Assembly (NCBI GenBank): GCA_040222015.1
Contig: JAVJWO010000164.1
Location: 1 to 13,606 of the forward strand
Reading direction: 5' to 3'
DNA length: 13,606 nt
Origin: Coleofasciculus chthonoplastes F2-STO-03
Lineage (GTDB): Bacteria > Cyanobacteriota > Cyanobacteriia > Cyanobacteriales > Coleofasciculaceae
The translations under genes and the position numbers were made by a program. Below, in pieces: positions 2,550 to 13,606 of the stretch. Under the pieces are notes generated by a model. It saw only the letters and a list, made by a program, of their open reading frames with translations. It had not been told where the DNA came from and ran no database searches. Position 1 is the first letter of the stretch. Every line of letters begins with the position of its first letter.

Positions 2550-4265
2550 TTAGAAAGGTTGAAAAAGAATGGAAAAGGTAATCCCATTGTCTTGTAGAGA
2601 ACCGCCTTCATCCTCAACGCTATTTAGAGGAATCCCCCAATAAAGTTGGGCTGACCACGATGGATCGCGTTGCCACAAAAGTCCTAACCCAATACTGGCT
2701 AAGGTGTTAGGATTAGTAACCTCACCCTTGTGGTTCCAAACGGTGCCAATATCGAAAAAAGGAGCAATTTGGACAGTCCCAATTCCCTCCGGTTGGCGGA
2801 TAATTGGTAAACGAACTTCCACGGAACCAATAATTCCATTGTCAGCCACGCGCTGATTTTGGCGATAACCTCGTACTGTATCAATTCCGCCAATATTGAA
2901 CTGTTCTAGCGGTAAGAGAGAATCATGAGAGAGTTGCGCTCCAGCGCGAGCAATAATAATACTATCTTCACCTAAAGCTTGCACCCATTGAAACTGTCCC
3001 ACCCAACTCATAAACCGCCCATCTGTACCCGTGTCATTGATTGTGGCGTCAAATGCATTCAAGCCAAAACTAAACTGCGATCGCGCGGCTAAGACGCGAT
3101 CGGTTGAACGGTTGAGCCAGTCTTGACTAAACCGCAATACTGTGACTTTCGATTCCCCATCTTCGGGTCCCAGAGAAAAGGAAAACGGGATATCATCCAG
3201 GACAAAGGTTTGGCTTTGACGCAAATCCAGAGACAAGGAAAGGGCAAAGTCACTCGTTGGCGTATGGACAATCGGTTGGCGAAACCCCACGGAAAAGGTT
3301 TCTGAGTTGGAGTTAATATCTAAGACCGAAAACGGATCTTCAACAATATCACTATCGCTATGGTTGTAGCTGAGACTTAACGTACCATCCCTGGGATTGA
3401 GGGGAACTTCATAGCTCAGACTATACTGATCCACCCCTTCAGTTATGCCATAATCGGCACTTATGCGATCGCCTAATCCCAATAGATTCTGATTCTCCAC
3501 CCTCACTGTTCCCCCCAAGGAACCGACACTGGGAGAGTCTCGATTCTCTATAGTCACAGAACTCATCCAAGGGTTTGCCTCTTCTAGCTGTAGGTTTAAC
3601 ACACTGGTTCCACCCATGGTTCCTGCTGATAACTCGGCTTGAATTTGATCCAGTATCGGATCAAGTTGCAGCAGTTGCAACGCCTCCTCCAAACGACGAA
3701 TATTCACCGGGGTTTGCGTCGCCAACTGAATCCGCGATCGCACGTAATCATCCCGCAAACGCTCTAATCCTTGAATCTCAATGCGTTCGATGCTCCCTTC
3801 AACCACCTGAATTCTCACCACACCATCGGTAATATCCTGAGACGGAAGAAAAGCACCTGAGGTGGTGTAGCCATTGTCCGTATATAACTCGGTAATTGCC
3901 GTGCGAATCGCTAAGAGTTCTTCAAACGAAGCATTTTGACCAATAAAGGGCGCAACAACCGCTTGCAATTCAGCCGGGGAAAAAACAGTACTCCCGAGTA
4001 CCTCGACTCGTTCAACCGTGACATTAATCTCCAAATCGGGTACTGGCGTCAGGGGTGTTCCCGGCGTTGGTGTGAGTGGGGGAAGAGGTGGGGGCGTCTC
4101 TGGGGGCGTCGTTGGTAAAGAAGGCAGATTGGGACGAGTGGGTTCCAGGATACCTGGTGGAATATCTGGATTAGTTTGACTCATCGGTGGTAAGTCCTGA
4201 GCTAGGGCGGTACAGCTCCAGCTCAAGTACACCAGATTTAAAGTCCAAAGAAACCGTTTAAACAT
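2550..4265 (-). CDS. TpsB / ShlB-FhaC-HecB family outer-membrane secretion-activation protein (POTRA + beta-barrel)
   Basis: Signal peptide (MFKRFLW...ALA|Q), Pro-rich linker, POTRA (VERVEVLGSTVFS...YTDNGYTTSGA...VRIQVVEG), conserved VRGY loop-6 motif, APFFDIG, terminal Phe. ATG 4265 preferred over TTG 4280. Confidence 0.93.
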   Translation of the reverse strand: MFKRFLWTLNLVYLSWSCTALAQDLPPMSQTNPDIPPGILEPTRPNLPSLPTTPPETPPPLPPLTPTPGTPLTPVPDLEINVTVERVEVLGSTVFSPAELQAVVAPFIGQNASFEELLAIRTAITELYTDNGYTTSGAFLPSQDITDGVVRIQVVEGSIERIEIQGLERLRDDYVRSRIQLATQTPVNIRRLEEALQLLQLDPILDQIQAELSAGTMGGTSVLNLQLEEANPWMSSVTIENRDSPSVGSLGGTVRVENQNLLGLGDRISADYGITEGVDQYSLSYEVPLNPRDGTLSLSYNHSDSDIVEDPFSVLDINSNSETFSVGFRQPIVHTPTSDFALSLSLDLRQSQTFVLDDIPFSFSLGPEDGESKVTVLRFSQDWLNRSTDRVLAARSQFSFGLNAFDATINDTGTDGRFMSWVGQFQWVQALGEDSIIIARAGAQLSHDSLLPLEQFNIGGIDTVRGYRQNQRVADNGIIGSVEVRLPIIRQPEGIGTVQIAPFFDIGTVWNHKGEVTNPNTLASIGLGLLWQRDPSWSAQLYWGIPLNSVEDEGGSLQDNGITFSILFQPF

Positions 4266-4388
4266 AAAACAGTAGCGCAAAGGTCATCGGTTGACAAGGA
4301 TGCAGAGAAACCCCGGACTGTTTTAAGCGTATATTTACCAAAAAAATTAATTTATACCACAAAACATTCATGCTAGGTAATATTCTTT

Positions 4389-4527: not shown

Positions 4528-4704
4528 TTTCTTGTTCTGCTTTCACCATCAGTTACCGGAAAAAATAAAATATAGTGGCAGATTAGAAGACTGTTTATCC
4601 CCTGTTTTTGACCATTGATCAACCCTGAGACCTTCAAATTCAGACCTGCCAGTTCAGATAGAAATTGCTTAAGATAGAGTTAATCGTTATCGTTGTTCCG
4701 AAAA

Positions 4705-7299
4705 ATGTCCCACGGTTGGCAGATTTGGCGTCGATTTATTGGATTATCTTTAGCCAGCCTTGTCTTTTGTATCAGCTTTCATTCCTGGTCTACTGGGCAA
4801 GCCGAACCCGCGACAGAAATTCAACAACAGCAATTACTTACACCGGCTTCTGAAAAACAGCTGGTGTCCAAGGGAATTGCATCCTATCAAATCGGAGAAT
4901 TCTCCCAAGCCATTAACTTATGGGAACAAGCCTTACCTCAAATTACCGACGAAAATGATCGAGCAATTGTTCACAATAACCTGGCGTTAGCCTATCAGCA
5001 AACGGGGGAACTGGCTCAGGCGATCGCGCACTGGGAAAAGGCGATCCAAATTTACCAGGCTTCACCGGATGCCGAAAACCAGAAACGGATCGCTGGGCTA
5101 TTAACGGAACAAGCCCAAGCTTACAATGATTTGGGACAACATCCGCGAGCGATTACTCTCTTAGAGTCAGCCATTGAACTCGCCACTGAATACCCAGATT
5201 CCCTAGCAGAAGCTGCCGCTCAAGGCGCTTTAGGCAATGCCCACTGGAGTGTAGGCAACTATGATCAGGCAATTGCCGCCCACAAACAGAGCCTAAAAAT
5301 TGCCCGCGCCTTGAATAATAACAGTTTTATCGCCACGGCTTTAAATAACGTGGGGAATGTTTATGTCAGTAGAGCCAGCCGATCAAGTTATCAGGCGCAG
5401 GTAGCTGAGTTAGAAGGAGATCTCGAAGAGGCGACACGCTTAACCCAAGAGGCGCTTCAGGATTGGACGCAAGCGAGAACATTCTTTGAGCAAAGTCTGG
5501 AAACGGCGCAAGCCTTAGGAAGTTTAACCGAAATTAAAGCCTTAATGAATTTAAATCGCTGGGTGATTAGTCGTCATTGGGCCAATGTCGCTGACAACTC
5601 AGCCGAACCCTTGAGTGAGGACGATCAGGCATTTCTCCAGAGCAATTGGCAACGAGTCAGAGCACTCCTCCCTGGAATACCTGATTCACGACAGAAAGCC
5701 TATACCCTGATTCACCTAGCCGCAAGTTTTCAACAGATCGAGTCAGAAGCTTCAACTCAGGAGTCGATCCAGCTTTTAACCCACGCTTTAACGATAGCCC
5801 AAAAAATAGGCGATGCCAAAGCCCAATCCTTTGCCCTAGGGAGCTTAGGACAGGTGTATGAATCAGCCGGAGACTACAGCACGGCGATGAATTTAACCCG
5901 CCAAGCTGAATTTAGCGCCCAGCAAATTCAATCCTCTGATAGTTTATATCGCTGGCAATGGCAAGCCGGGCGGATGCTAAAAGCCAGAGGTAATATCGCC
6001 TCAGCCATTTCCGCTTATGAACAAGCGATCGCGACGTTGCAAAATATTCGCGGCGATTTAGTCGCCAATAAAGAATTACAACTAGATTTCCGGGAACAGG
6101 TTGAACCCGTTTATCGAGAATTAATTGATTTGCTCCTCAATGCTTCCAGTCGCGATTTGAGCGATCCTAACTCCCAGGAAGAGGTTTCACCCCTGAAAGA
6201 GGTGCTCGATATCGTCGAACTGTTCAAACTGGCAGAGTTGGAAAACTTTTTCGGCGATGAATGCGTGCAAATCGCCAAAGACAAAGCTCAAAATGAGGAA
6301 GGGTTAGCGGATGCCAATGCTGCTGTCATCTATTCAATCATTTTGAACGATCGCACCGAAATGATCCTGCGATCGCCCGATGGTTCCCTGAAAAACTATC
6401 CTATCCCCATCAGCAAGGAAGAGATGGAAGCCGAGATTGAGCAGCTACGCTACTTTCTGGAACTACGCACCACGGAGCAGTATATCCCCCAAGCACAGAA
6501 AATTTATAATTGGCTGATTCGTCCCCTGGAAGCTGATTTAGCCGTCATGCAACCCAAGACGTTAGTCTTCATCAACGATGGCGTCTTGCGTCAGATACCC
6601 ATGAGTGCGCTGCATGATGGTCAAAACTTTTTGATTGAGAAGTATCCCATTGCGATTACTCCCAGTCTGTCATTGACCACCAGCCAACCGTTAGATCGCA
6701 ATCAGTTAAGAGCGCTGAGTCTGGGTTTAACTGTTGCCAGACCTCCCTTTGCCGCTCTCACAAATGTAGAAGCTGAGCTAAATGTGGTTGAAGAAATCTT
6801 AGGCGGGACTGAGTTAATTAATCAGGACTTTACCTTCTCGAACTTGCAAGCCAAACTACGACGCAAAAATTTTCCCGTGGTTCACATGGCAACCCATGGC
6901 AAATTTGGTGTAGATTCCCAGAGTACATTTATACTGGGTTATGATCAACAAATTAGTATTGAACAACTCGACAATCTCTTGCGTTCTCGCGGTCGTCGAG
7001 AAGCGGTCAAACTGCTCACCTTGAGTGCTTGCCAAACCGCGACAGGCAACAATCGTTCCGCGTTAGGAATTGCGGGTGTCGCTGTTCGAGCGGGTGTTGA
7101 GAGTGCTTTAGCGACGTTGTGGTATATCAATGATGAAGCTACCGTACCACTCATTGCCGAATTTTATCGCCAACTGCGCCAACCTGACATCACTCGGGCA
7201 GAAGCGTTAAGACAGGCACAGCTTAAGATGATTTCTAATGTCAATTATAATCATCCAGGGATTTGGTCGCCGTTTATTCTGATTGGCAATTGGCGTTAG
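4705..7299 (+). CDS. Exported TPR-repeat + CHAT (caspase/HetF-like) cysteine protease
   Basis: Signal-like N-terminus (RRFIGLSLASLVFCISF...GQA|E), multiple TPRs (e.g. NNLALAYQQTGELAQAIAHWEKA), and CHAT motifs DGVLRQIPMSALHDG, VHMATHG (His, 6895-6897), LTLSACQT (Cys, 7030-7032), ATLWYINDEAT, HPGIWSPFILIGNW. Alternative TTG start at 4693. Confidence 0.93.
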   Translation: MSHGWQIWRRFIGLSLASLVFCISFHSWSTGQAEPATEIQQQQLLTPASEKQLVSKGIASYQIGEFSQAINLWEQALPQITDENDRAIVHNNLALAYQQTGELAQAIAHWEKAIQIYQASPDAENQKRIAGLLTEQAQAYNDLGQHPRAITLLESAIELATEYPDSLAEAAAQGALGNAHWSVGNYDQAIAAHKQSLKIARALNNNSFIATALNNVGNVYVSRASRSSYQAQVAELEGDLEEATRLTQEALQDWTQARTFFEQSLETAQALGSLTEIKALMNLNRWVISRHWANVADNSAEPLSEDDQAFLQSNWQRVRALLPGIPDSRQKAYTLIHLAASFQQIESEASTQESIQLLTHALTIAQKIGDAKAQSFALGSLGQVYESAGDYSTAMNLTRQAEFSAQQIQSSDSLYRWQWQAGRMLKARGNIASAISAYEQAIATLQNIRGDLVANKELQLDFREQVEPVYRELIDLLLNASSRDLSDPNSQEEVSPLKEVLDIVELFKLAELENFFGDECVQIAKDKAQNEEGLADANAAVIYSIILNDRTEMILRSPDGSLKNYPIPISKEEMEAEIEQLRYFLELRTTEQYIPQAQKIYNWLIRPLEADLAVMQPKTLVFINDGVLRQIPMSALHDGQNFLIEKYPIAITPSLSLTTSQPLDRNQLRALSLGLTVARPPFAALTNVEAELNVVEEILGGTELINQDFTFSNLQAKLRRKNFPVVHMATHGKFGVDSQSTFILGYDQQISIEQLDNLLRSRGRREAVKLLTLSACQTATGNNRSALGIAGVAVRAGVESALATLWYINDEATVPLIAEFYRQLRQPDITRAEALRQAQLKMISNVNYNHPGIWSPFILIGNWR

Positions 7300-7436: not shown

Positions 7437-8288
7437 CTATGGTCTTTTAGCAACATCAAGCCGTTCTTGTTGCGTGACTTGAGTCAAGCCAACTTGCTCA
7501 AGCAGAGCCAGAAAATCATCGTTGATGCCTAGCTCATTAGAATTCGCGGTTTGAACGTTGGACATCGCGGCTAAGGCATCGTACCAAAGCCCAGTCTCAG
7601 CATAACTCCAAGCGCGATCGCGCCACACCTGTGTTGGTACATTGCTCTTAGCAGGAGTTGACAGCCGTTGGGTTTCTAAAGCGGCTGGTGTGGATACCCG
7701 CTCAATCCAGCTAATAAATACGGGATTAGCCGACGGACGCTTGGTATTACAAACCAGAGTGACTGACCATTTGTAGGTTCGTCCAGTTTGCAATTCTGGA
7801 CGATCTTTGGGCACTTGCAACTGTATCATCCCGGCTTGGGGAGAGTCTATCTGTTTCTCAAACAGCGGTTTCGCCACTCCGGGTTCTACTAAAGCAAACC
7901 GCATGGGTACAGAGACAGGCTGTGATAAGTGCCAGAAAAAGGTAGGATGACCTGATATCGTTTGTCCAGCATACTCCTCGGATGGGATCAACAATGTGAC
8001 TAAATCGTTGGTTAACGATTGGCGACAGCCGCGTGAACCCGAGCCGATTGTCCGCCGTGGGTTACTTGCCACGGGTGGTATATATTGTTTAGACGAACGA
8101 TGGGTTGACGTTTTGTTTAACTCTGCGTTGGCAGGTAGATCGTTCCAGATCGAAGTCAGAATTTCTAAATTCTTCGACGACGAAAAAATCCGTGGTTCAG
8201 GTAGGTCGAAAAAGCCGAACATTTGCAGGGAAACAATTGAAGCTGTCCCGGCAATGATCGTTACTATTTTTTGCCGAGTGGTGTTCAT
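7437..8288 (-). CDS. DUF928-family exported protein
   Basis: Hydrophobic N-terminus plus family-typical YIPP...PRRTIGSGSRGC, GQTISGHPTFFWHL, YKWSVTLVCN, SWIERV, YAETGLWYDAL and LLEQVGL. AAGGA upstream of the ATG. Confidence 0.88.
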   Translation of the reverse strand: MNTTRQKIVTIIAGTASIVSLQMFGFFDLPEPRIFSSSKNLEILTSIWNDLPANAELNKTSTHRSSKQYIPPVASNPRRTIGSGSRGCRQSLTNDLVTLLIPSEEYAGQTISGHPTFFWHLSQPVSVPMRFALVEPGVAKPLFEKQIDSPQAGMIQLQVPKDRPELQTGRTYKWSVTLVCNTKRPSANPVFISWIERVSTPAALETQRLSTPAKSNVPTQVWRDRAWSYAETGLWYDALAAMSNVQTANSNELGINDDFLALLEQVGLTQVTQQERLDVAKRP

Positions 8289-8443: not shown

Positions 8444-10375
8444 CTACAGCAAAATTTGATAAACGGCGGTTAACTGTTCGCGCCCTTTGAGTCTCACCTG
8501 ACCAATTTGTTTCGTGGGGAATTGATTGTGTAGATGCTGGTATGTTTCGTCATTGATTAAAATCCGGCAAATTCCTCCATCGAGCGTTTTATCGTAACTT
8601 TCTAATCGAGCCGCTACATTTACGCTATCTCCTAGGGTGGTGTAGTCAAGCCGTTGAGCATTCCCCAAGCTACCTGTGACGACATCTCCGGTGGCAATTC
8701 CCACACGCATTGCTGTCTGCGGATAGCCTTGACGTTGCCATTCTTGATTTAGGGTTTGCAGTTTTTGTGCCATGGATAATGCACAGTTTACCGCCGCGAT
8801 CGCATCCTGGTCAATTTCCTCAGATGTCGTGCGTTTAATCGGCACACCAAACACAGCCATAACTGCATCTCCGATAAACTTATCCACAACACCGCCATGA
8901 TCTAGCACCGTTCCCGCCATGGCATCCATATATTGGTTCAGCCAAGCCATCAGCACTTCCGAACCCATATTTTCTGCTACTGTACTAAACCCTTTCAGGT
9001 CTGAGAACAGAACCGTGGCAGTCATCTTCTGACCACGTAGACGTCCTTCTTTGAGAAGTTGTTCGCGATCGCGCCAAATTGCTTCGGCGATTTGCTTCGT
9101 TACATGGCGACCGAATAAATTCATAACTGTGTGTCGCTCTTCACGCTCGAAATTGGCGATGTACCCTGTCGTTGCTGTAGCGGCACCCAATAACGCCAAA
9201 GCTGGGGGAATCACAGGAATCCACCAACTGCTGATGATAAAGGCTAAGTAGCTGCTCCCGACCAGACCGAAAAGTGCGAACAAAAGGCTGATTACTGTCC
9301 AACGTGGCAATAATTTAGCCAAACCTCCAGCATCTCGCAAAACCCAACACAGGGTTGCACCCGTCAAAGACCAGAGGAAAATCCAGATCCCTTCGATTGG
9401 TTCCGACCAAGTTTTTAGTCCAGAACGCCCCTCTAGGGCTGAACTCAGCAAGTGACTAATCATGTTAGCCTGAACTTCTATCCCAGGTGTGCGCTCTTGG
9501 GTGGCAATTTTATCACCACTGTAGGGGGTATAGAAGAAATCATTCAGGCTAGTTGCCGTTGCCCCAATTAAAACGAGGCGATCGCGCATTAAGTCTGGTG
9601 GTATCCGGTCTTCGAGTACCTCTGTCAATGACACCCTGGGAAAGGTACGAGCCGAACCCTTATAGTTTAACAAAATCTGGTATCCCCCGTCATCAGCACT
9701 CACATAACCACCGTCATTTGCTGAAAAAGGTTGAAACGTCCCCTTTCCTAAATGAATCATTAGGGGATTCGTTTGGGAGGGTTGAGATATGATTTCTTGC
9801 TCTGCTAAATACATCAACGCCAGTCTCATCCCAAAAGAGACGGTGACTTGATCGTTGTCTAGCATATAAAGCAATGATCGACGCAGCTTACCATCCGCAT
9901 CAATCACCACGTTATTAAACCCAACTTGTTCGCGTTGATCTAGCACGGGTGCGGGAGCCACACTAGCGCTAGGATCGTGCTGATTAATTTTTTCTATCCC
10001 GATTAAATTGGGAGTTGTTTCAAAAACATTGACTAATTCGTCATGACCGGGCAAAACCGGTAAATCTCGATACAGGTCAAGACCAATCACTCTCGGGTTT
10101 TGCGCTTTAATTTTTTTGAGGAGTTCAGCCAGGACAGCATCAGGAATGGGCCACTGTCCGACCTTTTTAAGATCCGCCTCACTAATTCCCACGATTAAAA
10201 TTCGCTCATCCACAGGTTCTTGGGGACGCCAGCGAAAATATTGGTCAAGAGCTGCCCATTCCCAAGTCTGTAAAAAGCCGAGCAGCCGCAATAGGATAAC
10301 AAGTCCAGCCACACCAGGAGCAACCGTCCAGACGCCTCGCCCTGCCCAAATTTTTTGTCTAAGGTCTTTCCACAT
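8444..10375 (-). CDS. CHASE2-domain membrane class III adenylyl cyclase
   Basis: N-terminal TM, CHASE2 (ILIVGISEADL..GQWPIPDAVLA, IGLDLYRD, DADGKLRR, VLIGATA, PGIEVQANMI), three TMs, and a cyclase domain (LFSDLKGFS, VDKFIGDAVMAVFG, RVGIATG, DYTTLGDSVNVAARLES, LKGRE). Confidence 0.94.
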   Translation of the reverse strand: MWKDLRQKIWAGRGVWTVAPGVAGLVILLRLLGFLQTWEWAALDQYFRWRPQEPVDERILIVGISEADLKKVGQWPIPDAVLAELLKKIKAQNPRVIGLDLYRDLPVLPGHDELVNVFETTPNLIGIEKINQHDPSASVAPAPVLDQREQVGFNNVVIDADGKLRRSLLYMLDNDQVTVSFGMRLALMYLAEQEIISQPSQTNPLMIHLGKGTFQPFSANDGGYVSADDGGYQILLNYKGSARTFPRVSLTEVLEDRIPPDLMRDRLVLIGATATSLNDFFYTPYSGDKIATQERTPGIEVQANMISHLLSSALEGRSGLKTWSEPIEGIWIFLWSLTGATLCWVLRDAGGLAKLLPRWTVISLLFALFGLVGSSYLAFIISSWWIPVIPPALALLGAATATTGYIANFEREERHTVMNLFGRHVTKQIAEAIWRDREQLLKEGRLRGQKMTATVLFSDLKGFSTVAENMGSEVLMAWLNQYMDAMAGTVLDHGGVVDKFIGDAVMAVFGVPIKRTTSEEIDQDAIAAVNCALSMAQKLQTLNQEWQRQGYPQTAMRVGIATGDVVTGSLGNAQRLDYTTLGDSVNVAARLESYDKTLDGGICRILINDETYQHLHNQFPTKQIGQVRLKGREQLTAVYQILL

Positions 10376-10757: not shown

Positions 10758-13250
10758 CTATTTCTCTTGCGATGCAGCCTGATAGCAGATTAAATCATCC
10801 GCATTCGCGATCGCTACCAGTTCCGGAGCCGTACCCACGACTACACGTCCATCAGACGTTACCATCATACCCTGAGCTTCTTGAATTGGGTCGCCCGGTT
10901 TCCAGAAACTGGGGGTTGAGGATTGGGAATTGACCGTTGGCGCAGTGGCTTGTTGTCCAGCATCGCCAGTAATTCCCTGAACCTGAGTGACGGAATAGCG
11001 ACCTGATAGAGGATCATAGGGGTTATTCGGTAAACCACCTGTACCTGTAACGATAAAGCTACCTTGCTCCTTGTTGCGGTGGGTGAGACAACTATCGGCA
11101 ATCACTTGCTCCGGCGGCAGAAAATTGGTCGATAGTGGCGAGAGGGAATCTTGATTCAAATTCAGAGAGGATATGAATATATTCCCAATCGTGCCGCTAC
11201 CCAATGCCTCAACTGAAATATCCACTCGGTCATTACCCCGAAATGGTTCAAAGGAACCTGGGTTGCGACCTACAGGTGTCCCTTGACCACTAGAGAAAAA
11301 GTCTGCCAGAAACACGGGAGAGATAATGGTGATATCACCGCCCCTGCCATCAAAGGCATTTGCCAGAATATCACTATCTTCTAGAGCTATAAACACATCG
11401 GAGTTAATGGTAATATTTCCACCACCACCGACACTCTCAAAAACACTGGCACTAATCAAGCTACCGTCGCGTAGACGAATATCTTCAGCATTGATGTCAA
11501 TGTTACCTCCCCCTGCTTGATCTGAGGTTGCCCTGATTTCTCCGCCATCTCGGAGTCTTAGGTTATTGGTAGCAATAGCTAAATTTCCTGCATCACCCGT
11601 TCCTTCGCTGGAAACTTCCAATCGACTGGGCAGACGCTGACCATCTTCTCCTAAACCATTACCAAGAACTTCTACAGTATCTGAGGCGCTTACCGTTAAC
11701 GTTCCACCCTGACCTGCACCCGAGGTCGCCGCTGATACAATTCCTCCATCTTGAATCCTCAAGTTATTGGTAGTAATCATTAAATTTCCCGCATCGCCAA
11801 TTCCTTCACTGGAAGCTTCTAACGTACTGGGATTCATCTGACCTTCCATACCAATACCTGTACCCATGATTTCCACCGAATCCGAGGCATTGACTATTAT
11901 CATTCCACCCTGAGCCGCATCAGATGTCGCGGCTGTTAACTTTCCCCCGTCCTCAATGATTAGTCGTGCTGTAGTAATCTCTAAAGTTCCAGCCTTTCCA
12001 TTGGTTTGAGTGTTAACTCTTAATTCACTCGCATCGACGATTGGGGAACTGCCACTTATTTGTACTGATTCAGAGGCAGTTACAGTTAAGTTTCCACTGC
12101 GACCTGTACTAACAGGACCTTTGAAGATTGGAAGTGAACTAGTAGATATTTCAGCTCCATCCCGAACAATTAACTGCCGAGTATTAACGTTTATGTTTCC
12201 TGCATCTCCGTCATCTCCCGTAATCGTGGTTATACTGCTAGACCCCAGAATATCTGAAAATCCACTCAGTTCTACTGATTCTGAGCCAGTCACGACGACA
12301 GTTCCGGCTGGGACTGACCCAAACGTGAAAGAAGAAATTTTTGAGCCATCGGTGAGGGTTACTTGTCTGCCTTGTACTTGAATATCTCCACTACCGATAT
12401 CTCCACTATTAAAATCCGGTAAAGGACTCAGATCGGTTACATCAATGATAGCCCCCTGGGATAGATGAATATTCTTGAACGTCTCAACCTCCTCATAGCT
12501 TAGAGCCAAACCTTGGTTCGTTGGGTTCAACGTAACCAGACTGTTACTACCAACACTTCCTACTGCAATCAGTCCACTTGGTGCGGTTAGATTACCGCCT
12601 TCTAAAATCACTTCACCGCCCACAAGTGCTAAACTTCTATCTGCATCTACTCTCAAACCGGCAGGAGCTTCAAAACCATTAAATTGTTCCTGCATATCAC
12701 CCCGACTTGCTTGAGAGCGGTTAATAATACGTCCTGGGGAATCTCCAAATTGCAGTCCTACAGGAACACTGACGGTCAGTACCGATGAGGCTGAGGGATT
12801 AGTGGCGCTGAACTCTGTGTCATCGGCAAATTCTACACTATCGGCTGTGCTGGCAATAAAAGAACCACCTAAATCTAGGGCAGCTTCAGCACCAAAGATA
12901 ATGCCATTGGGATTGAGAAGAAATAAATTAGCATTACCTTGTGCTTTGAGTAAACCATCAATGTTTGAGATTGAATCCCCGGTCACACGGCTGATAATGT
13001 TTTGAACGGTAGAAGTGTTGTCAAACCAAGCCGATCCACCTGTCGGCACGGAAAACTCATGAAAGCTATGGAAAAGGTTTTCTCCGGCTTGGCTGCCTCC
13101 AGTAATAGTGAATTGAAGATTGTCTGAACTATTAACATTTGTGGGTAATGTCCCATCTGGGACAACTTGCCCTTGAACGGAGCTGACTGAAATTAGAAAG
13201 CAATAGGGAAGAGTTTGAAGTAACCAGAATGGATAGGAGTGTCGTTCCAT
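10758..13250 (-). CDS. TpsA filamentous-haemagglutinin-family exoprotein (TPS domain + beta-helix + cyanobacterial C-terminal domain)
   Basis: Signal peptide (...VQG|QVVPDGTL), TPS motifs NLFHSFHEFSV, NIISRVTG and NLFLLNPNGIIFG, repeated GDAGNL/GGNI beta-helix turns, and C-terminal SFIVTGTGGLP and IQEAQG. GAGG 7 nt upstream of the ATG. Confidence 0.93.
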   Translation of the reverse strand: MERHSYPFWLLQTLPYCFLISVSSVQGQVVPDGTLPTNVNSSDNLQFTITGGSQAGENLFHSFHEFSVPTGGSAWFDNTSTVQNIISRVTGDSISNIDGLLKAQGNANLFLLNPNGIIFGAEAALDLGGSFIASTADSVEFADDTEFSATNPSASSVLTVSVPVGLQFGDSPGRIINRSQASRGDMQEQFNGFEAPAGLRVDADRSLALVGGEVILEGGNLTAPSGLIAVGSVGSNSLVTLNPTNQGLALSYEEVETFKNIHLSQGAIIDVTDLSPLPDFNSGDIGSGDIQVQGRQVTLTDGSKISSFTFGSVPAGTVVVTGSESVELSGFSDILGSSSITTITGDDGDAGNINVNTRQLIVRDGAEISTSSLPIFKGPVSTGRSGNLTVTASESVQISGSSPIVDASELRVNTQTNGKAGTLEITTARLIIEDGGKLTAATSDAAQGGMIIVNASDSVEIMGTGIGMEGQMNPSTLEASSEGIGDAGNLMITTNNLRIQDGGIVSAATSGAGQGGTLTVSASDTVEVLGNGLGEDGQRLPSRLEVSSEGTGDAGNLAIATNNLRLRDGGEIRATSDQAGGGNIDINAEDIRLRDGSLISASVFESVGGGGNITINSDVFIALEDSDILANAFDGRGGDITIISPVFLADFFSSGQGTPVGRNPGSFEPFRGNDRVDISVEALGSGTIGNIFISSLNLNQDSLSPLSTNFLPPEQVIADSCLTHRNKEQGSFIVTGTGGLPNNPYDPLSGRYSVTQVQGITGDAGQQATAPTVNSQSSTPSFWKPGDPIQEAQGMMVTSDGRVVVGTAPELVAIANADDLICYQAASQEK
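11547..11948 (-). repeat. Tandem 201-nt (67-aa) internal duplication in TpsA
   Basis: GGKLTAATS...NNLRIQD (11948-11748) and GGIVSAATS...NNLRLRD (11747-11547): 42/67 identical residues by hand count, ungapped. Confidence 0.85.
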
Positions 13251-13326
13251 ATAAGTACCTCAGGGGTTAATAATAAAAGTCTAACAACTTAAACCCCACC
13301 AAGGCTTCAATCACTTCTAATTGCCT

Positions 13327-13524
13327 TCAGTAACACCGAGTCCACCACCCTGAACACTGTAGACCATTTGCTGTGGTCGCATCCTCTATCTGCTGTTGAG
13401 GATTTACAGGCTGGTCTTGCCTAACTCTATTCTCCATGGTGGAATTGGCAGAAACAGGAGCTGCGCCAACTTGAGTAGAAAATGTTAAGCTGAGAGCGAT
13501 CGCGGTAGATGCAACGAGTTTCAT
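13327..13524 (-). CDS. Small secreted protein / candidate peptide precursor (65 aa) with a C-terminal CSGWWTRCY
   Basis: ATG at 13524 with GGAG 9 nt upstream; classical signal peptide MKLVASTAIALSLTFSTQVGAAPVSA; co-oriented and 76 nt upstream of tpsA. The ORF-track GTG start at 13575 is less likely. Confidence 0.72.
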   Translation of the reverse strand: MKLVASTAIALSLTFSTQVGAAPVSANSTMENRVRQDQPVNPQQQIEDATTANGLQCSGWWTRCY

Positions 13525-13606
13525 TTTTCTTTTCTCCGAGTAGATGTACGAACCTGTGAGCTTGGTGTGATTCACCTAGCTCTGAAAATTTGAGAGATAA
13601 CTTGCT

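Follow-up and report, generated by a model that had tools for sequence, protein, structure and literature searches.

A small, putatively exported protein with a hypervariable tail is encoded ahead of tpsA in Coleofasciculus and related cyanobacteria: TpsA as its candidate partner

What is the short reading frame at the head of a two-partner secretion (TPS) gene in Coleofasciculus chthonoplastes F2-STO-03, and on which of its neighbors might its product act? The window, by which we mean the whole 13,606-nucleotide stretch analyzed (contig JAVJWO010000164.1), carries genes for TPS, CHASE2, DUF928, CHAT, TpsB, GlgA and TrkA proteins. The first-pass annotation had described an ORF with a signal peptide and a polar spacer, ending in LQCSGWWTRCY-stop. 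Translation of the minus strand at 13327-13524 gives exactly that, a protein of 65 amino acids whose last nine residues contain its only two Cys (57, 64) and its only two Trp (60, 61). The ORF had also been placed at the head of the tpsA unit, and indeed the peptide gene stops 76 bp short of the tpsA start codon. The features are as follows, with their basis in brackets; the CHAT gene is convergent to the DUF928, CHASE2 and tpsA genes.

13327..13524, minus strand: peptide gene P0001, 65 aa (sequence, family members, dN/dS)
13447..13524, minus strand: predicted Sec signal peptide, codons 1-26, cleavage likely after V-S-A26 (sequence; A26 invariant in homologue alignments; dN/dS 0.10 over codons 2-20)
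13375..13446, minus strand: polar linker rich in Q/N/S/T/D/E, codons 27-50, conserved in the genus (identity and dN/dS)
13327..13374, minus strand: hypervariable tail, codons 51-65 and stop, with the Cys57-Cys64 loop (identity, drop in DNA identity)
13534..13537, minus strand: GGAG, resembling a ribosome-binding site, 9 nt before the peptide ATG (sequence)
13251..13326, minus strand: 76-bp spacer from peptide gene to tpsA, no terminator-like site found (terminator scan, z -0.10)
10758..13250, minus strand: tpsA, 830 aa (TPS domain PF05860)
8444..10375, minus strand: CHASE2 - transmembrane - adenylate/guanylate cyclase, 643 aa (domain match)
7437..8288, minus strand: DUF928 protein, 283 aa (domain match)
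4693..7299, plus strand: TPR-CHAT caspase-like protease, 868 aa, with a signal-peptide-like N-terminus and ATHG and LSAC motifs (domain match, motifs)
2550..4280, minus strand: tpsB, ShlB/FhaC-type transporter, 576 aa (domain match)

A short frame that has no family match and is known from sequence alone could be a chance ORF or a non-coding leader of the tpsA transcript. We find this scarcely credible, since the 14 Coleofasciculus alleles compared give a dN/dS of 0.10 over codons 2-20 and of 0.36 over codons 21-50, and since the open frame, the signal and the Cys tail are kept across at least eight families despite divergent DNA. By this measure, codons 1-50 of the peptide gene are under purifying selection in Coleofasciculus. 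Signal peptides were assigned by eye and with a crude hydrophobicity filter. Among the 5470 ATG-started ORFs of 55-80 amino acids in the host genome, 295 passed the filter and two also carried a Cys/aromatic tail, a pattern set after the family had been seen; the two are the P0001 gene and its second copy on contig C166. A longer, GTG-started frame of 82 amino acids was set aside because every database homologue starts at MK. Such ORFs had been thought easily missed by annotation, but homologues are already annotated as 'hypothetical protein' (e.g. MC7420_3133). A scan of the peptide-tpsA region for promoters and terminators found none, which says nothing about expression, and the AlphaFold2 model of the peptide alone (pLDDT 54) is too low in confidence to judge the disulfide.

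Iterated searches gave a family of 76 distinct sequences, nearly all of 60-76 amino acids, from seven families of the host's order and one of another order. Members are present in 9 of 9 Coleofasciculus genomes and matches in 14 of 52 genomes of the host's family (a count that includes one unpublished genome, G778, used for no other result). Across the order, at least 25 of 401 genomes hold an inspected member, out of 40 with a match at E<=0.02; 15 candidates per genome were scored in this search, so misses are possible. On inspection, profile matches L043, L044, L046, L130, L169-L172 and L174 proved to be due to chance or to the signal peptide only and were removed, as were P0030 and P0032 (>2300 aa), which are repeats; L128, L129, L131 and L132 (frames of 206-457 aa), order-wide matches above E 0.004 and G046:C308 were left out of the family uninspected. 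L170:1486-1887 is a 133-amino-acid signal-bearing ORF with a Cys-bracketed Trp-rich tail and no adjoining tpsA in the 3 kb fetched.

Scanning 65 members against Pfam and NCBIfam yielded no family matched by more than one member (best E 0.003). A PDB search with the family profile returned one chance match (E 0.67), and the best hit of an ESM Atlas structure search (0.83) lay under the 0.9 level and was not used. The literature searched, with subscription papers mostly outside it and supplements excluded, held no published description of the peptide family or its module, and DUF928 appeared in an unrelated mention only. We regard the family as real; it lacks a Pfam, NCBIfam or PDB family match and has no description in the literature searched. 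A RiPP precursor or a PatS/PatX peptide was rejected: no recognized leader family was found among the 65 members and no linked modifying enzymes among the window genes, RGSGR, the PatS motif, is absent from P0001, and the PatS/PatX model NF047413 matches 1 of 65 members (E 0.007). The DUF928 protein (7437-8288) contains GSGSRGC, one residue off RGSGR, which is probably the DUF928 family's own conserved segment.

At least two Cys stand in the last 17 residues of 71 of the 76 members; one member has a single Cys and four have none. The Cys-x6-Cys ring proposed for P0001 is there, with six residues between the two Cys, but it fails as a family trait: spacing runs from 2 to 10 residues, 8 being the commonest (25 of 67), and therefore 'x6' is not conserved. 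Cys-free alleles with a short Trp/Pro-rich tail (L125-L127, P0018, P0020, P0022, P0024) adjoin an intact tpsA, that of L126 sitting with the full module. The suggestion of a strain-specific identity signal likewise stood in part. The tail does differ among Coleofasciculus strains, but a PIPF/WWPWC-type tail (also PIPFWPWC-type) is seen again across three families, so that the loop is not strain-specific everywhere. Aromatic residues make up 26% of the loops and 3% of the linker (76 sequences), and 46 of 76 loops are net positive, features that would suit an unmodified disulfide-looped antimicrobial peptide varied by competition. We consider this very improbable: the remaining 30 loops carry a negative net charge or none, no immunity gene, dedicated ABC exporter or modifying gene recurs across the mapped loci, and the fixed link to tpsA would be left unexplained.

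That link is close. All 27 loci that were mapped have the peptide gene immediately before tpsA, and scanning for small ORFs before tpsA in related loci bore out both the C-terminal Cys pair and the linkage. When matches were picked blind, by profile alone, at E<=2e-4, all ten were Cys-tailed small ORFs directly before tpsA; so was one of six weaker matches inspected. Of the 20 peptide-linked TpsA in a 70-row tree of the TPS domain, 17 group in one clade (95/85), from which the 50 other TpsA are all absent. The exception to the linkage is in G046 (L145, G046:C429), where a 42-amino-acid Cys-free remnant of the peptide gene stands upstream of ABC-transporter-like genes with no tpsA within the 12.6 kb fetched. 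L061 has two tandem peptide-tpsA units with a different tail in each, its first tpsA (L061:5583-8185) being broken by a frameshift or a sequencing error into overlapping frames of 273 and 604 aa, and a single peptide gene heads two tpsA in L178 and four in L181.

The rest of the module is linked less rigidly. Among the 27 regions fetched, some of them cut by contig ends, CHAT occurs in 21, DUF928 in 20 and CHASE2 in 18, in varying order, and a cyclase output domain with CHASE2 was seen only in the Coleofasciculus family among mapped loci. In the host genome 2 of 41 TPS genes have a peptide family member and 39 do not, despite 11 DUF928, 20 CHASE2 and 43 CHAT matches, so the module can exist without the peptide gene. 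Among 74 generic cyanobacterial tpsA loci, one has a family member and three more have other Cys-tailed exported small ORFs. The latter (L058:9174-9473, L106:9570-9887, L050:9502-9831; 99-109 aa) occupy the same slot before tpsA and do not match the family profile; the start of the L050 ORF resembles the signal peptide of the TpsA next to it.

Comparison of Coleofasciculus loci located the variation. Mean identity is 91% for peptide residues 1-50, 35% for the tail, 79% for TpsA and 91-95% for CHASE2, DUF928, CHAT, TpsB and GlpQ. Within TpsA, most windows up to residue 520 show 61-79% identity, and residues 520-830, its most conserved part, 83-95%. The CHASE2 cyclase is 100% identical between L124 and L126, with TpsA at 76% and unrelated tails; between L124 and L022 GlpQ is 100% identical, TpsA 74%, and the tails differ likewise. 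DNA identity between near-identical strains is 92-100% up to peptide codon 50 and about 50% in the tail, whose codons 51-65 form the left edge of the block that differs; it is 62-79% over TpsA codons 1-490 in the L124 pairs, recovers at TpsA codon 560-630 and exceeds 90% after about codon 630. Synonymous divergence is 1.4 (saturated) in the tail, 0.7-0.8 in TpsA 160-520 and about 0.2 in flanking genes, and this several-fold excess over the flanks indicates old alleles kept and exchanged by recombination. On this sequence comparison, a single divergent block, which starts at codon 51 of the peptide gene and ends near TpsA codon 560, is swapped between near-identical Coleofasciculus strains. TpsA length ranges from 693 to 831 amino acids among strains, the changes corresponding to gain or loss of whole beta-helix repeats (10758-11900, tpsA 450-830, compared with L021, L024 and L028).

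Assembly graphs are interrupted at the tail, and there are single mat samples with more than one allele. The host assembly holds a second peptide-tpsA unit with a different tail at G000:C166:83-2893 (L138) and G000:C27:1-141; C27 has one 141-base overlap in common with the C166 unit and with the window, and on its downstream side a multicopy repeat connects it to an HTH/aroA region in place of the CHASE2 gene. The C166 unit may be the allele of a co-occurring strain, wrongly joined during assembly, or it may be a genuine duplication. In G027, too, a contig breaks off within the peptide gene. Three RNA libraries from a single study gave contigs that cover the peptide gene with 8-9 differences from the C166 allele, which attests presence in the libraries and is not proof of transcription; the X3, X5 and X6 contigs extend 720 bases into the DNA upstream, which leaves room for DNA carry-over. 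In the RNA-run contigs X2, X11 and X16 cover is low or absent over the HTH/aroA stretch and the greater part of tpsA, although absent cover and contig depth cannot rank genes.

To ask which protein varies with the tail, we compared tail similarity with that of neighboring segments by Mantel tests. Over 8-10 related loci, tail similarity tracked TpsA 160-520 (rho 0.35-0.36, p 0.02-0.03), these p-values being 2 of 11 tests and lost under Bonferroni correction, and it did not correlate with nine other segments, including the physically nearer TpsA 28-160. The CHASE2 sensor domain, the CHAT TPR region and DUF928 showed no covariation with the tail (rho -0.28 to -0.01). The covariation with TpsA is weakened by the fact that adjacent genes are co-inherited anyway, and six Coleofasciculus loci have TpsA 83-89% alike (one pair 97%) yet very different tails. 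In five pairs outside Coleofasciculus, tail identity was again variable (18-57%); identities of the TpsA N-part and CHAT were 85/86, 65/66, 92/85, 92/92 and 75/82%, so that TpsA was not clearly more divergent. That CHASE2, DUF928 and CHAT stay constant while the tail and the TpsA beta-helix vary points to TpsA, and not CHASE2, as the probable partner of the tail.

These data bear on the original proposal of a pheromone precursor, cut (perhaps by CHAT) to free a cyclic peptide that CHASE2 or the CHAT TPR domain would read directly. The signal-linker-core layout with a short, variable C-terminal core fits such a precursor, as does the presence of a CHASE2 gene in two thirds of the regions (18 of 27). 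Caspase-type proteases cut at Asp sites, and a QIEDAT-like motif resembling such a site precedes the tail in 36 of 76 sequences; the Asp itself is present in under half of the members (32 of 76), and no cleavage motif before the tail is invariant among the 76. Ten members carry a lipobox and look like lipoproteins, including an LAAAGC subfamily predicted to be lipid-anchored (L140:5282-5491, L141:6233-6442, L159:1501-1722), which makes a free, processed pheromone doubtful. The pro-region had been called disposable, a description hard to square with a linker under purifying selection. The position and output domain of CHASE2 vary while the position of tpsA does not, and an identical CHASE2 cyclase beside unrelated tails speaks against CHASE2 as an allele-specific receptor. 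Since neither CHASE2 nor the CHAT TPR region varies in step with the tail, we judge a free pheromone sensed by either of them unlikely.

The TpsA model shows a predicted beta-helix over residues 28-650 and a C-terminal region of low confidence that contains Cys721 and Cys822; in an alignment of 70 TpsA, Cys721 is invariant and Cys822 nearly so. A fold search gave HxuA, EtpA and HMW1 as the best likenesses, and a domain search found no toxin domain in TpsA. In the model, variable loops appear to project from the helix at about residues 180-200, 273-288, 332-341 and 370-385. HMW1 and HxuA have C-terminal disulfide anchors, and HxuA binds a protein ligand (PMC5422565); the TpsA here resembles them in its short beta-helix and in a C-terminal Cys pair comparable to the disulfide anchor, although this pair encloses 100 residues, a difference from the HMW1/HxuA type. 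Complex prediction for TpsA 28-650 with peptide residues 27-65 scored 0.02 in two runs with no folded controls, a score that weighs neither for nor against binding.

We tentatively propose, at somewhat less than even chances, that the tail loop is an allele-matched ligand of the TpsA encoded directly behind it and feeds the CHAT/DUF928/CHASE2 module. The mini-protein would be exported by Sec, and a disulfide would close the two-Cys aromatic loop, presented on its polar tether. The loop would bind the variable loops of its own TpsA helix (residues about 160-520), with the C-terminal Cys pair holding TpsA in TpsB. The conserved TpsA tail may then relay the bound or unbound state to the TPR-CHAT protease, DUF928 and the CHASE2 cyclase and so change cAMP, a relay proposed from gene neighborhood only. 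The loop/TpsA pair would thereby serve as a strain-identity input to an otherwise invariant signaling module.

The same block could instead encode a cis-acting accessory of TpsA, resembling BcpO, that stays in its own envelope and caps or plugs TpsA, chaperones it in export or masks self-adhesion. The peptide would then diversify only because TpsA does, under phage or predator pressure, with no signal between cells. Its fixed place at the head of the tpsA unit, the conserved rather than disposable linker, the succession of several tpsA behind one peptide gene and the lipobox in 10 of 76 members, which would be membrane-tethered, all agree with this. BcpO of the Burkholderia bcpAIOB TPS/CDI loci is a third component of 57-172 amino acids; one class is a 73-74-amino-acid lipoprotein needed for BcpA function and another varies with the cognate allele (PMC3415462). 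The likeness, compared by description, is that both proteins are small, exported or lipid-anchored, and encoded within the TPS unit. However, the BcpO gene lies between bcpI and bcpB and the peptide gene before tpsA; the lipoprotein class I has a varying signal and a nearly invariant mature part, the reverse of the peptide; and BcpA has a C-terminal toxin in place of the conserved tail and variable helix of this TpsA (PMC3415462 for BcpO and BcpA). Moreover, the tail diverges faster than TpsA (52% against 82-93% DNA identity between L022 and L126), and most TpsA lack such a gene. We regard an accessory role as the main rival of the matched-ligand proposal, possible though less likely than it.

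Contact-dependent inhibition (CDI) offers a further comparison. In CdiA-CT/CdiI, the variable part of TpsA and the small gene beside it are inherited and swapped as a block and pair allele-specifically; CdiI is cytoplasmic, encoded downstream and neutralizes a toxin, whereas the small protein here is encoded upstream with an export signal and only its last 15 residues vary (PMC3415462, PMC5422565). The peptide was therefore rejected as an immunity protein of the CdiI/BcpI kind, its gene lying upstream with a signal peptide and TpsA 520-830 being the most conserved part. In a TPS review, CdrA/LapG shows a neighboring exported protease, a place that CHAT would take here, and the review's section on additional TPS partners does not list a small Cys-loop peptide (PMC5422565). 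In Sinorhizobium, the CHASE2 cyclases CyaD1/CyaD2/CyaK are described as activated via the outer-membrane receptor NsrA for a protein signal, with Clr; that system has a plant protein signal and a beta-barrel receptor, and no TpsA, CHAT or self-encoded peptide is described for it (PMC13001267). By analogy, the system at this locus would work most like polymorphic TPS cognate pairs (CdiA/CdiI, BcpO).

In the plant S-locus pair SCR/SP11-SRK and in Gram-positive Phr/AgrD pherotypes, a small, secreted, variable peptide is encoded beside a covarying receptor. The likeness is one of analogy and not of homology, and TpsA is a putative receptor. A doubtful but possible extension of the allele-matched ligand proposal is a counterpart of the S-locus, in which the hypervariable disulfide-looped peptide and a beta-helical TpsA receptor are passed on and swapped as a single haplotype, subject to balancing selection, their match or mismatch on binding at the surface acts through the caspase-like protease and DUF928 on the CHASE2 cyclase, and the outcome is kin discrimination in mats and bundles.

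A loop of 10-15 residues that can be synthesized, a series of natural alleles within one genus and a clear-cut expectation (TpsA, not CHASE2) permit direct tests of cognate against non-cognate pairs; the allele series and the mapped swap boundary are what the locus contributes. It also bears on the input of CHASE2 receptors and on the role of the many cyanobacterial TpsA/CHAT/DUF928 modules. Even as an accessory, the peptide would be an undescribed third component of two-partner secretion. If the S-locus comparison is right, cyanobacteria would have their first known case of self-recognition through a peptide, with TpsA as a signal receptor, and if the loop does convey identity, the locus would bear on strain sorting among cyanobacteria that form mats and bundles.
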